Sequence record: OP352608
Length of the DNA stretch: 64,000 bases
From: Escherichia phage vB_EcoM_SP13
Reading direction: 5' to 3' (one strand)
Below, in pieces: positions 7,441 to 49,548 of this stretch. A model generated the notes under the pieces. That model saw nothing but the letters and a program-made list of their open reading frames with translations. It had not been told where the DNA came from and searched no databases. The position numbers and the translations under genes are program-made. Each line of letters opens with the position of its first letter. Position 1 is the stretch's first letter.

Positions 7441-7578
7441 ATGCAAAAGATTATTCAGTCACGTTATGTTAAAGTGCGAAATATTAATTGCAACTCTTTG
7501 CTTTCTTGGAAATGGGCTGTTTATGACTCGATGTTGATTGGCGTTTTAGTGGCAGGAGTGCTATTTAATATTCACTGA
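7441..7578 (+). CDS. small hydrophobic protein (45 aa)
   Basis: AGAGGA RBS 5 nt before ATG; C-terminal hydrophobic stretch MLIGVLVAGVLF; below the ORF-track size cutoff. Confidence 0.3.
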   Translation: MQKIIQSRYVKVRNINCNSLLSWKWAVYDSMLIGVLVAGVLFNIH

Positions 7579-28906: not shown

Positions 28907-29551
28907 ATGATTAATGCAAACGTAATATCTAAAGGGACCGGATGCAGCATGGATGTTGCTGAAAAATGGGTCGACCCCTTCAAGCAGGCTTGTGAGCACT
29001 ACGGAATCAAAAGCAAGAATGCCATCGCGGCGTTGCTTGCAAACGTAGGAGTAGAAACAGGCAGTATGAAGACTTTTGTGGAGAACTTGAATTACTCCGC
29101 TCAAGGTCTTGCGAATACATGGCCTAGCCGTTACAGCGCCAGCGGTCGTTTCGGTGGCGCACCAAACTCCTTGGCATTGTCTATTGCCCGTAAACCAATG
29201 GAAATCGCCAATAATACATATGCAAACCGAATGGGCAATGGTTCGGTAGCATCTGGCGACGGTTGGAAGTACCGTGGCCGTGGTGCCATTCAGCTGACTG
29301 GAAAGGCTAACTATGCAGAGTATTCAAAGCAATCAGGGTATGATGCATTGAATAACCCTGACATTTTGACTGAGCCGAAACACATCGCTGACAGCGCGGC
29401 ATGGTTCTTCAAGAACAGCGGTTGCATCCCACTTGCTGATGCTGGCGCATTTGATTCGACTGTGAAGCGGATTAACGGGGCCGCGCCGAATACGGCTAAC
29501 CATGGAGATTTGCGACGGAAGCGTTACAAGGATGCACTAGCAGTTATGTAA
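28907..29551 (+). CDS. endolysin, glycoside hydrolase family 19-like
   Basis: YRGRGAIQLTGKANY motif characteristic of GH19 phage lysins; last gene of virion module. Confidence 0.6.
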   Translation: MINANVISKGTGCSMDVAEKWVDPFKQACEHYGIKSKNAIAALLANVGVETGSMKTFVENLNYSAQGLANTWPSRYSASGRFGGAPNSLALSIARKPMEIANNTYANRMGNGSVASGDGWKYRGRGAIQLTGKANYAEYSKQSGYDALNNPDILTEPKHIADSAAWFFKNSGCIPLADAGAFDSTVKRINGAAPNTANHGDLRRKRYKDALAVM

Positions 29552-29552
29552 G

Positions 29553-29580
29553 AAAAAGGCCCATATGGGCCTTTGTTTAT
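29553..29580. terminator. bidirectional rho-independent terminator
   Basis: Palindrome GGCCCATATGGGCC (29558-29571) flanked by A-run and T-run, between convergent genes. Confidence 0.65.
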
Positions 29581-29789
29581 TTTACGGCTTCAACCTGGAC
29601 GGGCGGCGCGGAACTTGTATCAATGTCTGGCAAGTCGAAGTAATACCCCGCCATGCCAATCACGCCAACAATCGCGGCCCGTGCCACCTTGTTGCTGATT
29701 GACTCCCCAATAAGCTTTACCAACAGGGACAAGATTTGAGACGTCAAAGCCTTTTTCAGCCTTTTGTTTTCTTCCAAATCTTTCTGCAT
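29577..29789 (-). CDS. small membrane protein (70 aa)
   Basis: GGGTGG RBS 5 nt before ATG 29789; C-terminal hydrophobic segment AAIVGVIGMAGYYF. Confidence 0.4.
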   Translation of the reverse strand: MQKDLEENKRLKKALTSQILSLLVKLIGESISNKVARAAIVGVIGMAGYYFDLPDIDTSSAPPVQVEAVK

Positions 29790-29803: not shown

Positions 29804-30346
29804 TCAACGCACTTCCTGTGTCTTAACATTACCTGAAGCATCTCTTAAGGGCAGTGGATAGTAGGCCATTTGGTAGTCTGATACGCCTTCAACATGATAA
29901 AACACGATTACGTCTTTGCTGTTGATGAGCATGTTAACGACATCTGATTTATCTTCTGGAGTGAGTATGAGTGCGCCGCCTGTCCTGCTGTCTACTGCAA
30001 CAGGGTATGTCTTATCGACAAGGCCGCTGTCCAATGTATTATACCTGACAACGATTTCAGGGGCATCAACTTTTGCAATTGACATTCCGAACACAAACGA
30101 CACGACTTGGCGACCGCGATCATTCATTACGCACATCTTTTCCTTATCAAACCTTTCCTTTATCACATCATATTTGTTCCAACAAAATTCGAACGATTGG
30201 CCGTTGTTAAAATATCTCGTTAATACTTTTGCATTGCTGTTTGGCGGCGTAAACATACTTTCAGCCGCTGCACTTTTGGTGAAGAACAAAACTGTCAGCA
30301 TAGCCATGATGATGATCAAAACAATCTTTAAGTTTTTCGATTTCAT
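29804..30346 (-). CDS. secreted protein of unknown function
   Basis: N-terminal signal-peptide-like sequence MKSKNLKIVLIIIMAMLTVLFFTKSAAAE; own TTTACT-N16-TATACT promoter upstream. Confidence 0.5.
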   Translation of the reverse strand: MKSKNLKIVLIIIMAMLTVLFFTKSAAAESMFTPPNSNAKVLTRYFNNGQSFEFCWNKYDVIKERFDKEKMCVMNDRGRQVVSFVFGMSIAKVDAPEIVVRYNTLDSGLVDKTYPVAVDSRTGGALILTPEDKSDVVNMLINSKDVIVFYHVEGVSDYQMAYYPLPLRDASGNVKTQEVR

Positions 30347-30423: not shown

Positions 30424-30448
30424 AAAGAAAAGCCGGAGATTTCCGGCT
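30424..30448. terminator. rho-independent terminator (AGCCGGA / TCCGGCT)
   Basis: 7-bp stem, 4-nt loop, flanked by A-run and T-run. Confidence 0.55.
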
Positions 30449-30522
30449 TTATGTATACACTGTATATTAAATTCTATAAAACGACGAGATAGATTATCCG
30501 CACCAATTATTTATCTAGTGTC

Positions 30523-32090: not shown

Positions 32091-32606
32091 TTATTTTTCC
32101 TTTGATGCATTGAATTGATCGATTTTTATTTTAGCCTGATTATAAGTATCAATCAAGCTATTAACTTTCTCTTTTAATCGATTTGTTTCTGCGGCGAACT
32201 GAACAAGAAATCTGACATCCTCTTCTGATAGTCCACAGTTTCCTTCTGGGATAGAGAGGCGTCCAGTGGTCGCAGAGTCGGGCACACTCCTGAGTAACTC
32301 ACGGGAGCAGCTGAGTTGCTCGCGCAACTTGACATTCCCAGACTTGTAACGAGCAATAGTGTCATCAGCAACCAGTTGCGCTTCCTGGCGACCCTTCTCA
32401 TATGCCGATGCCGATTCAACCTGTAAAGTTGCAATTTGCTCTTCGAGTGCATTTATCTTGTCCTTACGCTCATTAAGCGATGTCAGATATTGATTATCCT
32501 TGGCCAGTGATGCGTTGGTTTGCTGCAGGTCTTCAACGTATGATCCAGCGGCAAACGCGCCAACAAGGGCCAGAATCTTCAGGAGCGGTACAATTCTTTC
32601 TATCAT
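32091..32606 (-). CDS. Rz-like i-spanin (putative)
   Basis: N-terminal hydrophobic anchor followed by long coiled-coil-like region; contains an embedded out-of-frame lipoprotein-like ORF. Confidence 0.4.
   Translation of the reverse strand: MIERIVPLLKILALVGAFAAGSYVEDLQQTNASLAKDNQYLTSLNERKDKINALEEQIATLQVESASAYEKGRQEAQLVADDTIARYKSGNVKLREQLSCSRELLRSVPDSATTGRLSIPEGNCGLSEEDVRFLVQFAAETNRLKEKVNSLIDTYNQAKIKIDQFNASKEK
32174..32365 (-). CDS. Rz1-like o-spanin embedded in alternative frame (putative)
   Basis: 63 aa from internal Met: MTLLLVTSLGMSSC (signal plus lipobox-like Cys), Pro-containing mature part; entirely inside 32091-32606 in another frame. Confidence 0.35.
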   Translation of the reverse strand: MTLLLVTSLGMSSCASNSAAPVSYSGVCPTLRPLDASLSQKETVDYQKRMSDFLFSSPQKQID

Positions 32607-32663
32607 GATGCACCAGATAAATAAAAGGCCGCCAATCGGCAGCCTTGTTGATTTGATTGTCGA

Positions 32664-42981: not shown

Positions 42982-43428
42982 TTAACGGTAGTTAACTAGT
43001 TGCTGATCACCAGAGAAGGTGCAATGATAAACGAATTGTGCGTTATAAAGCAACTGAAAACTTTTCTTTGGTTCATTATTAGAACTCATTGATGTAAAGA
43101 TTTCTGCACCAGAACGGTTTTCACCAATCAGGTTGATAAAGCCGCCAGTTGAACGAGGCTGAACGAAAGTGAAACGTTGCATCCACGGAGTGCGGTTGGC
43201 ACCTTTCCCTGTGAATCCTTGAATCTGAATATTCAGGCCTTCTTGCTCGTTCACACCGATGTAAGTGGTAATTGTTGCGCCAGTCGTTGCTGCAGTCTTG
43301 CCGTCCATCGCTTCGCAATCGTAAACAGCGATTGAATCGGAAGTACGGACAGCGGCTTCAGTCGCTTCCATATACATGGTTCCGAGAATAGCAGTTGCGG
43401 CAAGCGCGATTCCAGTGATTCGTTTCAT
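42982..43428 (-). CDS. secreted protein of unknown function
   Basis: Signal-peptide-like N-terminus MKRITGIALAATAILGTMYMEATEA. Confidence 0.45.
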   Translation of the reverse strand: MKRITGIALAATAILGTMYMEATEAAVRTSDSIAVYDCEAMDGKTAATTGATITTYIGVNEQEGLNIQIQGFTGKGANRTPWMQRFTFVQPRSTGGFINLIGENRSGAEIFTSMSSNNEPKKSFQLLYNAQFVYHCTFSGDQQLVNYR

Positions 43429-44622: not shown

Positions 44623-45462
44623 TTATTCCGCTTGATCACCGTCTTCGGCATTGTCGTTGGATTCAACATCGACAAACTCGATGTGGCCCATCTCTTCCAG
44701 CTTGCTCAGGTAGGAGCGAACGGAAGCGCCAAACAGTTGATCTTTAACTTTTTCGCCCAGCTCATCGATAGACTGCGCCACGCCAACTTCGCCTTCTTTG
44801 ATCGCCGCCAGAACGCGTCCACGGGTGGAATGCTCTTGCGGCTGGCTCAGGCCATTGCCGGTGTAGATGAAGTGAGTGGCTTTTGCACGACGCTGACCGT
44901 TTGCCTTTTTAGCAGCCTTGCGCTCTGCGATGGCTTTGCGACGTTCTTCAGCTTCTTTCTTACGCTGTTCTTTCTGCTGTTCTGCAGCTTCTTTAGCCGC
45001 AATCTTAGCAGCTTCACGCTCTGCCTTGCGTTTCGCTTTAGCTTCTTCTTTGGCCTTCTCTTTTTCGGCCTTCGCTGCAGCACGGGCTTGATCACGCTCT
45101 GCTTTCTTGGCCGCAGCCTGCTCAGCTTTCAGGCGCTTGGCTTCTTCTTTAGCCTTTGCCTTTTCGATTTCTTTTGCTGCTTTAGCGGCTTCACGCTCTG
45201 CTTTCTTAGCAGCAGCCTTTTCTGCACGCTCTTTAGCTTTCTTAGCTGCTTCTTCAGCACGCTTCTGCGCCTTCTCATCAGCAGCCTGCTTGCGTTTCAG
45301 CGCAGCTTCTTCACGCTTGGCTTGTTTTTCCTGCTCACGCTTCTGGCGCTTCTCTTCGGCTTCTTTCTTTTTAGCCAGGCGTTTTTCTTCAGCCACGCGA
45401 CGACGTTCTGCTGCGGCTGCTTGTTTTTCTTCTTTAGATAATACTTTGATTGCTTCGGCCAT
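44623..45462 (-). CDS. highly charged K/A/E-rich protein with globular C-terminal domain
   Basis: About 190 aa of KAE-rich low-complexity repeats (AKKAKERAEKAAAKKAERE...) then a 70-aa non-repetitive C-terminus; AAGGA RBS before ATG 45462. Confidence 0.5.
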   Translation of the reverse strand: MAEAIKVLSKEEKQAAAAERRRVAEEKRLAKKKEAEEKRQKREQEKQAKREEAALKRKQAADEKAQKRAEEAAKKAKERAEKAAAKKAEREAAKAAKEIEKAKAKEEAKRLKAEQAAAKKAERDQARAAAKAEKEKAKEEAKAKRKAEREAAKIAAKEAAEQQKEQRKKEAEERRKAIAERKAAKKANGQRRAKATHFIYTGNGLSQPQEHSTRGRVLAAIKEGEVGVAQSIDELGEKVKDQLFGASVRSYLSKLEEMGHIEFVDVESNDNAEDGDQAE

Positions 45463-45621
45463 ATTCACAGTCCTTAAATAAATTAGTTTATTTTATATTC
45501 CCCGTTTGGGATAACTTAATTATGCCTTCAGTTGCCGCCAGTAGCAACTAAAAACTATGGCGGCAATGCCACTTTAATTAAACTGATTTTCAGTTTTATT
45601 TTTCGTAAATTTACGTCAACA

Positions 45622-46806
45622 TTAACGCGCTTTCAAATCACGGTACACGGTCAGATTCTTCTTAGCACGGGTGATAGCGGTGTACATCATCTTGGAGTAC
45701 GGAACGCCGCGCAAGATTTCTTCCAGCACGCACACATTATCCCACTCGCTGCCTTGCGATTTGTGCACCGTGATGACATAGCCATAGTCCATCCCGCCAA
45801 CAGCGCGTTGCGCTTCTTTGCGCACTTCCTGATCAGTAGAGAAGGAAAGAGGATTGATCTTCACCTTTATATCTTTACCATCAGTTAATGAACGCAAGTT
45901 GACATACATTATTTCATTCGACTCATCTTCATCCCTTTCAAAGTCCGGCACTGGCTCATAGCTAATAACAATCCCTTGCTCGCCATTACAGAATCCTGGA
46001 CCGTGTTGGTTGAATGTGCAAATAACCTTCTCGCCGATTCCTGGCATTGGCGTTATACGTCCGCTCACTTGCCGTAATAATGAATTCCATTTATCTTTGG
46101 TGCTATTATAGGAGCAAATAATTTGATCATCTTCGCCCATGAATTTCTTCAATGCAGTAACGCGCGGCGATTCTGCCAATACTTTGACGTCATCGTATTC
46201 ACGCGGGGGAAGGCGGTTGCCTTGGCGCACGAAGAAGGAGGCGCGGATTATATTGGACTCTTTCCCTTGCCGCATGATTTCGGTTAACAGCACGTCAACG
46301 GCATCTTCAGTAAAGTAGGCGGCGGCTTTTACCGGAGGGACTTGTCCAATGTCGCCTAATGCCAGGACAGGGATGCGGTGATCAAGAAGGCGCTCTGTGT
46401 CCCACTCGCCAACCATCGACGCTTCATCGAGTACAACAAGGTGCGGCCTTTCATCCAGCTTTGACTTTCTCGAAAAGATTGGCTCATTGTCGTCATTTAC
46501 GCCGCGCACGTTATAGATGAACTGGTGAAGGGTCTTAGCGCCACGACAGCCTTTTTGCTTTAATCGGCTTGCAGCCTTTCCGGTCGGCGCAATATAGATA
46601 GCTCCATACTCACCGACACAACGGCGCACAATCTCGCGAGCAATAGAGGTTTTACCAGTCCCTGCATAGCCAGCGATGAAAAACACGCGCTTCGTCGTTT
46701 TACCGTCCTGCAATCGCTTGTACCATGCAACGGCTTTCTCGATGGCGTCGATTTGTTGCGCGTTAAACTGAATCACTGGCTCATCATTAAATTCTGGAAT
46801 GTTCAT
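45622..46806 (-). CDS. Dda/RecD-like SF1 DNA helicase
   Basis: Walker A AGYAGTGKT, Walker B VVLDEASMV, C-terminal VITVHKSQGSEWDNV and TAITRAK motifs. Confidence 0.7.
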   Translation of the reverse strand: MNIPEFNDEPVIQFNAQQIDAIEKAVAWYKRLQDGKTTKRVFFIAGYAGTGKTSIAREIVRRCVGEYGAIYIAPTGKAASRLKQKGCRGAKTLHQFIYNVRGVNDDNEPIFSRKSKLDERPHLVVLDEASMVGEWDTERLLDHRIPVLALGDIGQVPPVKAAAYFTEDAVDVLLTEIMRQGKESNIIRASFFVRQGNRLPPREYDDVKVLAESPRVTALKKFMGEDDQIICSYNSTKDKWNSLLRQVSGRITPMPGIGEKVICTFNQHGPGFCNGEQGIVISYEPVPDFERDEDESNEIMYVNLRSLTDGKDIKVKINPLSFSTDQEVRKEAQRAVGGMDYGYVITVHKSQGSEWDNVCVLEEILRGVPYSKMMYTAITRAKKNLTVYRDLKAR

Positions 46807-49138: not shown

Positions 49139-49257
49139 ATTTAGGTATAGATACTTATGAAAGCCGTAAAGAAATACACATTAATCATTTCCCTTGTCAT
49201 CATCCTGGGGCTATTATATGTATTGGATATGGCATATTATTTGGCAGGGGTGAGTGG

Positions 49258-49548
49258 ATGAATATTGTAATTCTTTATGGTGAAAATATCAGCGATGACG
49301 ACATCGAAGTTGCCGTTGATGTTTACGGTATCGATGAGGTGAAACGTGTTGAAGAAATTAGTGGCGCAAATCTCAATGAGATTGTCAAAGAAGCTTGCTG
49401 CCCTTCGGAAGAGATTCTGGTGGTTACTAACGATGACCTGTCTTCTATGGATCATTTGCGCCGCATCTTCACCGATTGCCAATACCTTCATGCTGTTCAA
49501 TCAGTAAACAAATTGAGAAAGGCATACGCCAACCAATTTCCTTGCTGA
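49258..49548 (+). CDS. hypothetical protein
   Basis: 96-aa ORF. Confidence 0.35.
   Translation: MNIVILYGENISDDDIEVAVDVYGIDEVKRVEEISGANLNEIVKEACCPSEEILVVTNDDLSSMDHLRRIFTDCQYLHAVQSVNKLRKAYANQFPC

Follow-up and report, generated by a model that had tools for sequence, protein, structure and literature searches.

The locus at 32091..32606 on the minus strand very probably encodes a two-component spanin of the embedded layout, in which the o-spanin gene lies in the +1 frame inside the i-spanin gene, and the pair would most likely serve to disrupt the outer membrane at lysis. The whole stretch of DNA that was analysed (64 kb) is called the window below. An embedded i-spanin/o-spanin pair had been proposed here in a preliminary description, and the proposal held, as the inner frame is conserved and under selection, a lipobox is present, and an N-terminal membrane helix is predicted for the outer protein. 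The spanin pair is already known, and its recognition here is a correct rediscovery. As the pair was catalogued in a 2018 survey and is annotated in sister phages, the finding itself is ordinary. The present analysis adds comparative proof of selection on the embedded frame, and it links the spanin families of phages ECML-117 and PY54.

The i-spanin gene (32091..32606, minus strand) starts with ATG and encodes 171 residues, which are predicted to be arranged as a transmembrane segment, a long helix, a linker and a second helix. The predicted transmembrane anchor IVPLLKILALVGAFAAGSY (32538..32594, minus strand) corresponds to residues ~5-23, and its Kyte-Doolittle mean is 2.1 over 17 residues. 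Residues 5-23 are the sole strongly hydrophobic stretch of the 171-aa protein, and according to the alignment the stretch is kept in all relatives. The AF2 model of the outer protein, for which a five-sequence alignment was the input, consists of a helix of residues 5-106, a non-helical linker of 21 residues (107-127) and a helix of residues 128-170. The mean pLDDT is 78.8; the values are 82-93 over the blocks of residues 31-100 and 55-75 in the linker. The N-terminal membrane anchor claimed earlier agrees with the hydropathy, and long helices follow it in the AF2 model. Cys100 and Cys124 are invariant in five lineages.

In the PHROG search, family 1327, named 'Rz-like spanin', matches the 171-aa protein over its full length with an E value of 1.9e-26 (residues 6-160 aligned to positions 9-156 of the 158-position profile), and the embedded protein gave weak matches to PHROG o-spanin profiles. 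Neither the outer nor the embedded protein matched a spanin family in Pfam-A at E <= 1, and the NCBIfam scan of both proteins matched no family. The families of lambda Rz, which we take to be PF03245, and of Rz1 were presumably present in the Pfam library searched. Judged by these searches, the locus appears to resemble Rz/Rz1 by architecture and PHROG family only, and it falls outside the Pfam families of lambda Rz/Rz1.

The embedded +1 frame is open for 92 codons at 32174..32452 on the minus strand, and it ends 83 nt before the outer stop. A second ORF wholly inside the 171-aa gene in another frame had indeed been described, and this part of the description corresponds to the +1 frame with its stop at 32174. 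The conserved core reading of the o-spanin gene (32174..32401, minus strand) gives 75 residues, namely the 25-aa signal MRRVARKRNWLLMTLLLVTSLGMSS, then Cys, with a 50-aa mature part whose N-terminus is CAS. In the coordinates of the outer gene, the o-spanin extends from nt 155 or 206 to nt 433 of 516, entirely within the i-spanin gene. With the short start, the o-spanin spans 0.40 L to 0.84 L, which falls within what Kongari et al. (2018) quote as typical.

The n-region of the 75-aa reading is basic (RRVARKR) and is followed by a hydrophobic core and the lipobox M-S-S-C (32324..32335, minus strand), whose putative lipid-modified Cys is residue 26. The residue at position +2 is Ala, and Asp is not present there. 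Met at position -3 of the lipobox is atypical; it is found in F13 and WFC, and Ile is found in the remaining Wifcevirus sequences compared. The lipobox of relatives reads ISSC, ISGC or TSSC. A PROSITE-type lipoprotein rule is satisfied by the embedded frame solely from the 32401 start, with the Cys at position 26. The second Cys of the o-spanin (C40, in GVCPT) is invariant across the lineages. The mature part had been described as Pro-containing, and four Pro are found among its 50 residues.

Selection on the embedded frame was examined using divergent relatives, which were obtained by a protein search together with their contigs; a search for the locus in viral contigs gave near-identical Wifcevirus genomes only. 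The four divergent homologues of the outer protein show full-length identities of 52-65% (56-67% by local BLASTP). In each of the four relatives the corresponding region of the +1 frame is likewise open, and its product is 56-65% identical to that of the window, whereas the +2 frame contains 13-16 stops per lineage. The signal consensus in the divergent relatives is MR/K-K-A-A... L-A-I/T-S-G/S-C, and the mature consensus is C-x-x-N/S-S/Y-x-A-P-x-x-Y/W-x-G-V-C-P-T-L-x-P-L-D/E-A/S-S-L-S-Q/K-K/Q/R-E-T-V/A-D-Y-Q...M-S-x-F/I-L-F. Within the genus, the 75-aa frame is unbroken in 28 of 28 Wifcevirus records with identities of at least 93%. Conservation of the embedded frame in relatives is thus found at both distances, as the frame is open with a lipobox in the four divergent and the 28 Wifcevirus records.

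Synonymous differences were counted at codons with an unchanged outer amino acid, and the overlap was defined as gene nt 206-433. They amount to 26% in the overlap; outside it, the remainder of the gene and the MazG-like gene each show 52%, and the upstream gene shows 46%. The difference between the overlap and elsewhere gives a Fisher p of ~4e-17, where the pairwise comparisons are non-independent. The outer gene of the window was also recoded synonymously 5000 times using local codon usage. Among the recodings, 1.7% contained an alternate-frame ORF that carried a PROSITE-type lipoprotein signal, and 15% contained an alternate-frame ORF that began with ATG and ran for at least 75 codons. The recoding test on the single sequence is suggestive of an embedded gene, and the comparative data are decisive. 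These comparisons show purifying selection on the embedded frame as well as on the outer one.

For the start of the o-spanin, the preliminary description had given a 63-codon ORF. The ATG at 32365 does give this ORF, which begins MTLLLVTSLGMSSC, and it is an internal Met of the 92-codon ORF. The 32365 start was rejected, as the Met is missing in two lineages (L007 and L008), the n-region has no K/R, and the Cys falls at position 14. The lipoprotein-like signal described for it stood as far as the lipobox is concerned, but a valid signal is obtained only from 32401. Two upstream ATGs, at 32401 and 32452, are conserved in five of five divergent lineages. The 32401 ATG gives the 75-aa protein (MRRVARKR...), and the onset of synonymous-site suppression coincides with this ATG; no strong Shine-Dalgarno sequence is located ahead of it. 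The 75-aa core of the o-spanin is certain.

A 17-codon N-terminal extension of this core (MHSKSKLQLYRLNRHRH..., 32402..32452, minus strand), which leads to the 92-aa reading, is possible. That the o-spanin is made from the upstream 32452 ATG, or that both starts are used, is an alternative to be taken seriously, though somewhat less likely than not. An AAGGA Shine-Dalgarno-like motif (32461..32465, minus strand) lies 8 nt upstream of the 32452 ATG, and both the motif and the ATG are kept in the five lineages. Within the motif, Lys is encoded by AAG in every lineage, and the flanking Arg and Asp codons vary. The outer codon overlapping the 32452 ATG varies only among NAT codons (N/Y/H/D) and is then followed by G; this restriction points to constraint on the 32452 ATG itself. 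The GenBank annotations of Mansfield and Bas101 start the o-spanin at the equivalent of 32452 (92 aa), and Mansfield also has an annotated ribosome-binding site at the AAGGA. The extension itself, however, shows 51% synonymous differences, that is, no suppression, and its sequence is little conserved. In the 92-aa reading, the signal peptide would comprise 42 residues, its basic n-region would be long and the Cys would be at position 43, whereas the Cys of lipoprotein signals is usually found at positions 15-35. In PY54 and LIET2, in-frame stops are located just ahead of the o-spanin starts, so that an extension of such length is absent there. The 75-aa start was also the one picked for the o-spanin of ECML-117 by Kongari et al. 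(2018). The annotation of the start is therefore inconsistent, as the survey has 75 aa and GenBank has 92 aa.

A stronger version of the two-start reading would be that the Wifcevirus o-spanin is translated from both 32452 and 32401, and that the two forms differ in export kinetics, by which the accumulation of functional spanin is tuned. We regard this as unlikely. If it were true, the dispersed lysis genes, namely a spanin in the replication cluster and a PA1-LRP-like protein replacing the canonical holin, would be part of one non-standard lysis programme. Dual-start devices are known for holins, and to our knowledge none has been described for spanins.

Around the pair, a 3-kb stretch shows 100% identity to Escherichia phage F13 (OP745617.1, genus Wifcevirus) and 94-97% identity to 27 other Wifcevirus records. 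In the F13 record, the outer gene is annotated as 'hypothetical protein', and the inner gene has no annotation. RefSeq records label the outer gene 'Rz-like spanin', and the records of Mansfield (2019) and the BASEL phages Bas98-101 (2025) annotate 'i-spanin' or 'Rz-like spanin' plus 'o-spanin'. The pair of ECML-117, a sister Wifcevirus, is listed among the embedded i-/o-spanins in 'singleton' families (Kongari et al., 2018, BMC Bioinformatics 19:326). In the supplement of that survey, the i-spanin is at 45375-45894 and the o-spanin at 45462-45689, with 75 aa, a 25-aa signal and a mature N-terminus CAS. The ECML-117 i-spanin is 98.8% and its o-spanin 94.7% identical to those of the window, and in both phages the o-spanin begins 205 nt into the i-spanin. 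The differences are a few substitutions, and the lipobox is GISS-C in ECML-117 and GMSS-C in F13. The literature consulted yielded no experimental work on the pair or on the spanin of any other Wifcevirus, and the papers on Mansfield and vB_Eco4M-7 contain no statements on lysis genes. The importance of the pair goes little beyond annotation: F13 and many sister records can be corrected where the outer gene is 'hypothetical' and the inner gene is missing.

According to tblastn searches, both proteins have distant homologues in phages of Yersinia (PY54, P840 and P744) and of Pantoea (LIET2 and Nafs113). Burkholderia phage Mica and Serratia phage MQ-4 gave matches to the i-spanin only, and Acinetobacter phage Alexa gave one to the o-spanin only. 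These distant matches fall in genes annotated as Rz-like spanin, except for the unannotated MQ-4; the original GenBank entry of PY54 reads hypothetical protein. The PY54 ORF63 spanin is a homologue of the i-spanin with 28% identity over 146 aa (E 9e-21). Its embedded +1-frame lipoprotein MLRTKQKALLLLTVLAISGC... is about 42-49% identical to the o-spanin of the window, and the two o-spanins have the motif GxCPxLxPxDxxLxxxETxDxQxxMSxFLF in common. The embedded +1 arrangement and the Cys pattern of PY54 are as in the window. The PY54 o-spanin differs in its short 19-aa signal, for which an N-terminal extension is impossible. The PY54 spanin is located directly after the holin and glycoside-hydrolase genes, whereas the pair of the window is located in a replication cluster. 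As the PY54 homologues lie in a canonical cassette, the family is tied to lysis by gene context. By these matches, the 'singleton' spanin families of ECML-117 and PY54 in the survey of Kongari et al. (2018) are homologues.

The pair is similar to lambda Rz/Rz1, the prototype of the embedded two-component spanins, in its layout, as the o-spanin is embedded in the +1 frame and the i-spanin has a transmembrane segment, a helix, a linker and a helix. Lambda Rz has two periplasmic Cys, and the small lipoprotein Rz1 contributes a further one, as is predicted for the window pair. These details of lambda Rz/Rz1 are reportedly those of Berry and colleagues and of Kongari and colleagues, and the embedded two-component spanin class is that of Summer and colleagues in 2007 and of Kongari and colleagues in 2018. 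The window pair differs from lambda in that there is no sequence relationship at the Pfam level and the pair is not adjacent to holin or endolysin genes. The mature o-spanin is also less Pro-rich (4/50) than the mature part of lambda Rz1, which presumably has 10 Pro in 40 residues. In T4, the spanin genes, which we take to adjoin pseT (polynucleotide kinase) among nucleotide-metabolism genes, are separated and not embedded, and PseT.3/PseT.2 belong to an unrelated sequence family whose i-spanin has no Cys. Although T4 pseT.3/pseT.2 are located apart from t and e, they complement lambda Rz/Rz1 (Kongari et al., 2018).

The soluble GH19-type endolysin (214 aa; 28907..29551, plus strand) matches the endolysin family phrog_181 with an E value of 1.9e-69 and has no N-terminal transmembrane segment. 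The Mansfield endolysin is annotated with the glycoside-hydrolase InterPro domain IPR000726, and the homologue in lineage L009 shows a weak match to PF00182. This endolysin is presumed to be the functional partner of the spanin pair. The pair had been described as lying about 3 kb from the endolysin on the other strand; the strand is as described, and the gap is ~2.5 kb. The nucleotide-metabolism surroundings noticed earlier were also found, as genes for a MazG-like pyrophosphatase and a DNA ligase are located directly downstream of the pair. The spanin pair sits in a minus-strand replication cluster. In four divergent relatives, the gene order is helicase, DUF7307, Pam3_Gp34-like, i-spanin, MazG-like, ligase, two small genes and then the endolysin on the other strand.

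An intrinsic terminator hairpin with a 9-bp stem, a 4-nt loop and a T-tract (32625..32646, minus strand) is located between the Pam3_Gp34-like gene and the start of the i-spanin. The hairpin is conserved in four divergent relatives and is annotated as a terminator in Mansfield; another intrinsic terminator is found 3' of the ligase gene. In a promoter scan around the spanin locus, sites were no more numerous than in shuffled sequence. As a terminator is located just ahead of the i-spanin, the pair should be expressed by read-through or from an unlocated promoter.

The spanin pair lies outside any lysis cassette, and the endolysin and holin genes are not contiguous with it. A complex that spans the envelope and has a role other than lysis, such as superinfection exclusion, membrane anchoring of replication complexes or early envelope remodelling, would account for the location in the replication cluster rather than near the endolysin. 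The place between the Pam3_Gp34-like gene and the MazG-like and ligase genes on the replication strand, the synteny kept in all relatives, and the location on the other strand, 2.5 kb from the endolysin, all fit such a role. We nevertheless consider it highly improbable, as the PY54 homologues occupy a holin-endolysin-spanin cassette, and as the T4 spanin genes are an example of dispersed spanins distant from holin and endolysin genes that complement lambda Rz/Rz1 (Kongari et al., 2018). In addition, no other spanin candidate was found on scanning the 64-kb window, which covers all but ~4.8 kb of the genome. The other ORFs with a hydrophobic N-terminus in the window encode 180 and 148 aa, and neither has a lipobox Cys after the hydrophobic stretch.

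That the embedded ORF is an untranslated frame open by chance, within a gene for a spanin-like or other membrane-anchored coiled-coil protein, is scarcely credible: long alternate-frame ATG ORFs do arise in the recodings, the 32401 ATG has no strong Shine-Dalgarno sequence and the embedded protein has no Pfam or NCBIfam match, but the frame is open with its lipobox in four divergent lineages, synonymous variation is halved exactly across the overlap, and the mature o-spanin sequence is recognisable within the spanin genes of further phages, PY54 and LIET2 among them.

For the two-component spanin, the following mechanism is proposed by analogy, and it covers the localisation, complex formation, disulfides, membrane disruption and timing of the pair. 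The 171-aa i-spanin would be anchored in the inner membrane by its N-terminal helix, and its two linker-joined long helices would extend into the periplasm. The +1-frame o-spanin would be exported by Sec, receive a lipid on the lipobox Cys and be cleaved by signal peptidase II; with Ala at +2, its sorting to the outer membrane is expected. As in lambda Rz/Rz1, the C-terminal part of the i-spanin and that of the o-spanin would bind to each other across the periplasm, and intermolecular disulfides would stabilise the complex. The two invariant Cys of the i-spanin, which are predicted to be periplasmic, and one Cys of the o-spanin are the candidates for these disulfides, and both proteins probably act as disulfide-linked dimers. 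The spanin complexes would be restrained by the peptidoglycan mesh until the endolysin degrades the wall. After loss of the meshwork, the complexes would collapse, the inner and outer membranes would be fused or disrupted, and lysis would be completed. Spanins stay inert as long as the peptidoglycan is intact, and for this reason a location in the replication cluster on the opposite strand is tolerable.

Since the endolysin has no N-terminal transmembrane segment, another factor must release it. The preliminary description had stated that no holin is evident next to the endolysin. This is correct for canonical holins: when all non-overlapping ORFs of the window were scanned by hydropathy, no holin with two or three transmembrane segments was found, and the Bas101 record has no holin annotation. 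It overlooks a 70-aa ORF (29577..29789, minus strand) that is convergent on the endolysin and has a hydrophobic stretch at residues 41-57. The scan yielded this ORF together with two other small ORFs with a single transmembrane segment (7441-7578 and 49157-49261), and the ORF at 29804-30346, which has a signal or anchor at its N-terminus. Searched against PHROG and Pfam, these ORFs matched nothing besides phrog_5165, which is the family of the 70-aa ORF.

The 70-aa protein is 54% identical over 50 aa (E 2e-13) to PA1-LRP of a Pantoea phage, the sequence of which was reconstructed from the primers in PMC11538084 on the PA1 genome PP537389. PA1-LRP is reported to be toxic, to permeabilise cells and to boost endolysin-mediated lysis (PMC11538084). 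The 70-aa family is conserved in 325 phage records, mostly of Pbunavirus, and in phage PBJ, the one Pbunavirus inspected, the homologue adjoins the endolysin. In the syntenic slot of PBJ, an embedded spanin was looked for and rejected, as the slot contains a 201-aa membrane protein; this protein has a sub-threshold match to GTA_holin_3TM (E 0.018), and we do not claim it as a holin. Judged by homology and position, the 70-aa ORF is a candidate holin, that is, a lead and not a demonstration. The gene is unannotated and is shared by Wifcevirus, Pbunavirus and Pantoea phages; it offers the best lead to the holin that is missing in this therapeutically used group, and it may be of more practical value than the spanin pair.

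The 70-aa ORF at 29577–29789 on the minus strand is the top holin-like candidate for this phage group. The ORF is convergent with the gene of the GH19-type endolysin, and its product contains a single hydrophobic stretch (residues 41–57). The ORF is assigned to phrog_5165, and homologues are kept in 325 phage records, 289 from Pseudomonas phages (mostly Pbunavirus) and three from Pantoea phages. Over a 50-aa comparison, the product shows 54% identity (E = 2e-13) to PA1-LRP, a protein of Pantoea phage PA1 whose sequence was rebuilt from published primers. Toxicity of PA1-LRP and its enhancement of endolysin-mediated lysis have been reported (PMC11538084). In all of the records inspected, the 70-aa ORF is labelled 'hypothetical'.

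Between the ligase gene and the 70-aa ORF, a 180-aa ORF is located on the minus strand (29804–30346). Its N-terminus is highly hydrophobic (KD 2.8) and is followed by AAA-E, and this region looks like a signal peptide or a signal anchor. No match to the 180-aa ORF was detected in PHROG, Pfam or NCBIfam; its position is conserved by synteny among divergent relatives (180–184 aa). The holin search also turned up ORFs of 148 aa (42982–43428, minus strand), 45 aa (7441–7578, plus strand) and 34 aa (49157–49261, plus strand). Each of these possible membrane proteins has a single predicted signal or TMD, and none of the three matched PHROG.

In Pseudomonas phage PBJ (Pbunavirus), the interval between the Pam3_Gp34-like gene and MazG is occupied by a 201-aa membrane protein of phrog_1544 (L014 3548–4153); in Wifcevirus, the spanin pair is located at this site. 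The 201-aa protein has a Gly-zipper-like N-terminus and two hydrophobic segments on the C-terminal side. The sole relevant Pfam match, GTA_holin_3TM, is sub-threshold (E = 0.018), and an embedded lipoprotein ORF was sought within the gene and is absent. The two genera may carry distinct envelope-acting genes in the same slot.

The start of the o-spanin is in conflict, giving 92 aa in GenBank annotations and 75 aa in the 2018 spanin survey. The in-frame ATG at 32452–32454 (minus strand) is kept while the overlapping i-spanin codon encodes Asn, Tyr, His or Asp (all NAT). An AAGGA motif (32461–32465, minus strand) is located 8 nt 5′ of this ATG, and the Lys codon is invariably AAG. These features suggest a constraint acting on the nucleotides, pointing to a start in use.

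The spanin–MazG–ligase unit is flanked by intrinsic terminators on the minus strand, at 32625–32646 on the upstream side and at 30429–30450 on the other. The upstream hairpin lies only about 15–20 nt from the i-spanin ATG, and is retained in relatives sharing 52–65% identity in the outer protein. Therefore, expression of the unit needs read-through or an unrecognised promoter.

The spanins of ECML-117 and PY54 were classified as distinct singleton families, for the i-spanins and o-spanins alike (Kongari et al., 2018, Tables 3–4). Here, however, they are related rather than separate, as homology is detectable for both subunits (E = 9e-21 for the i-spanins; a common motif for the o-spanins). Pantoea phage LIET2 is a further member of this group.
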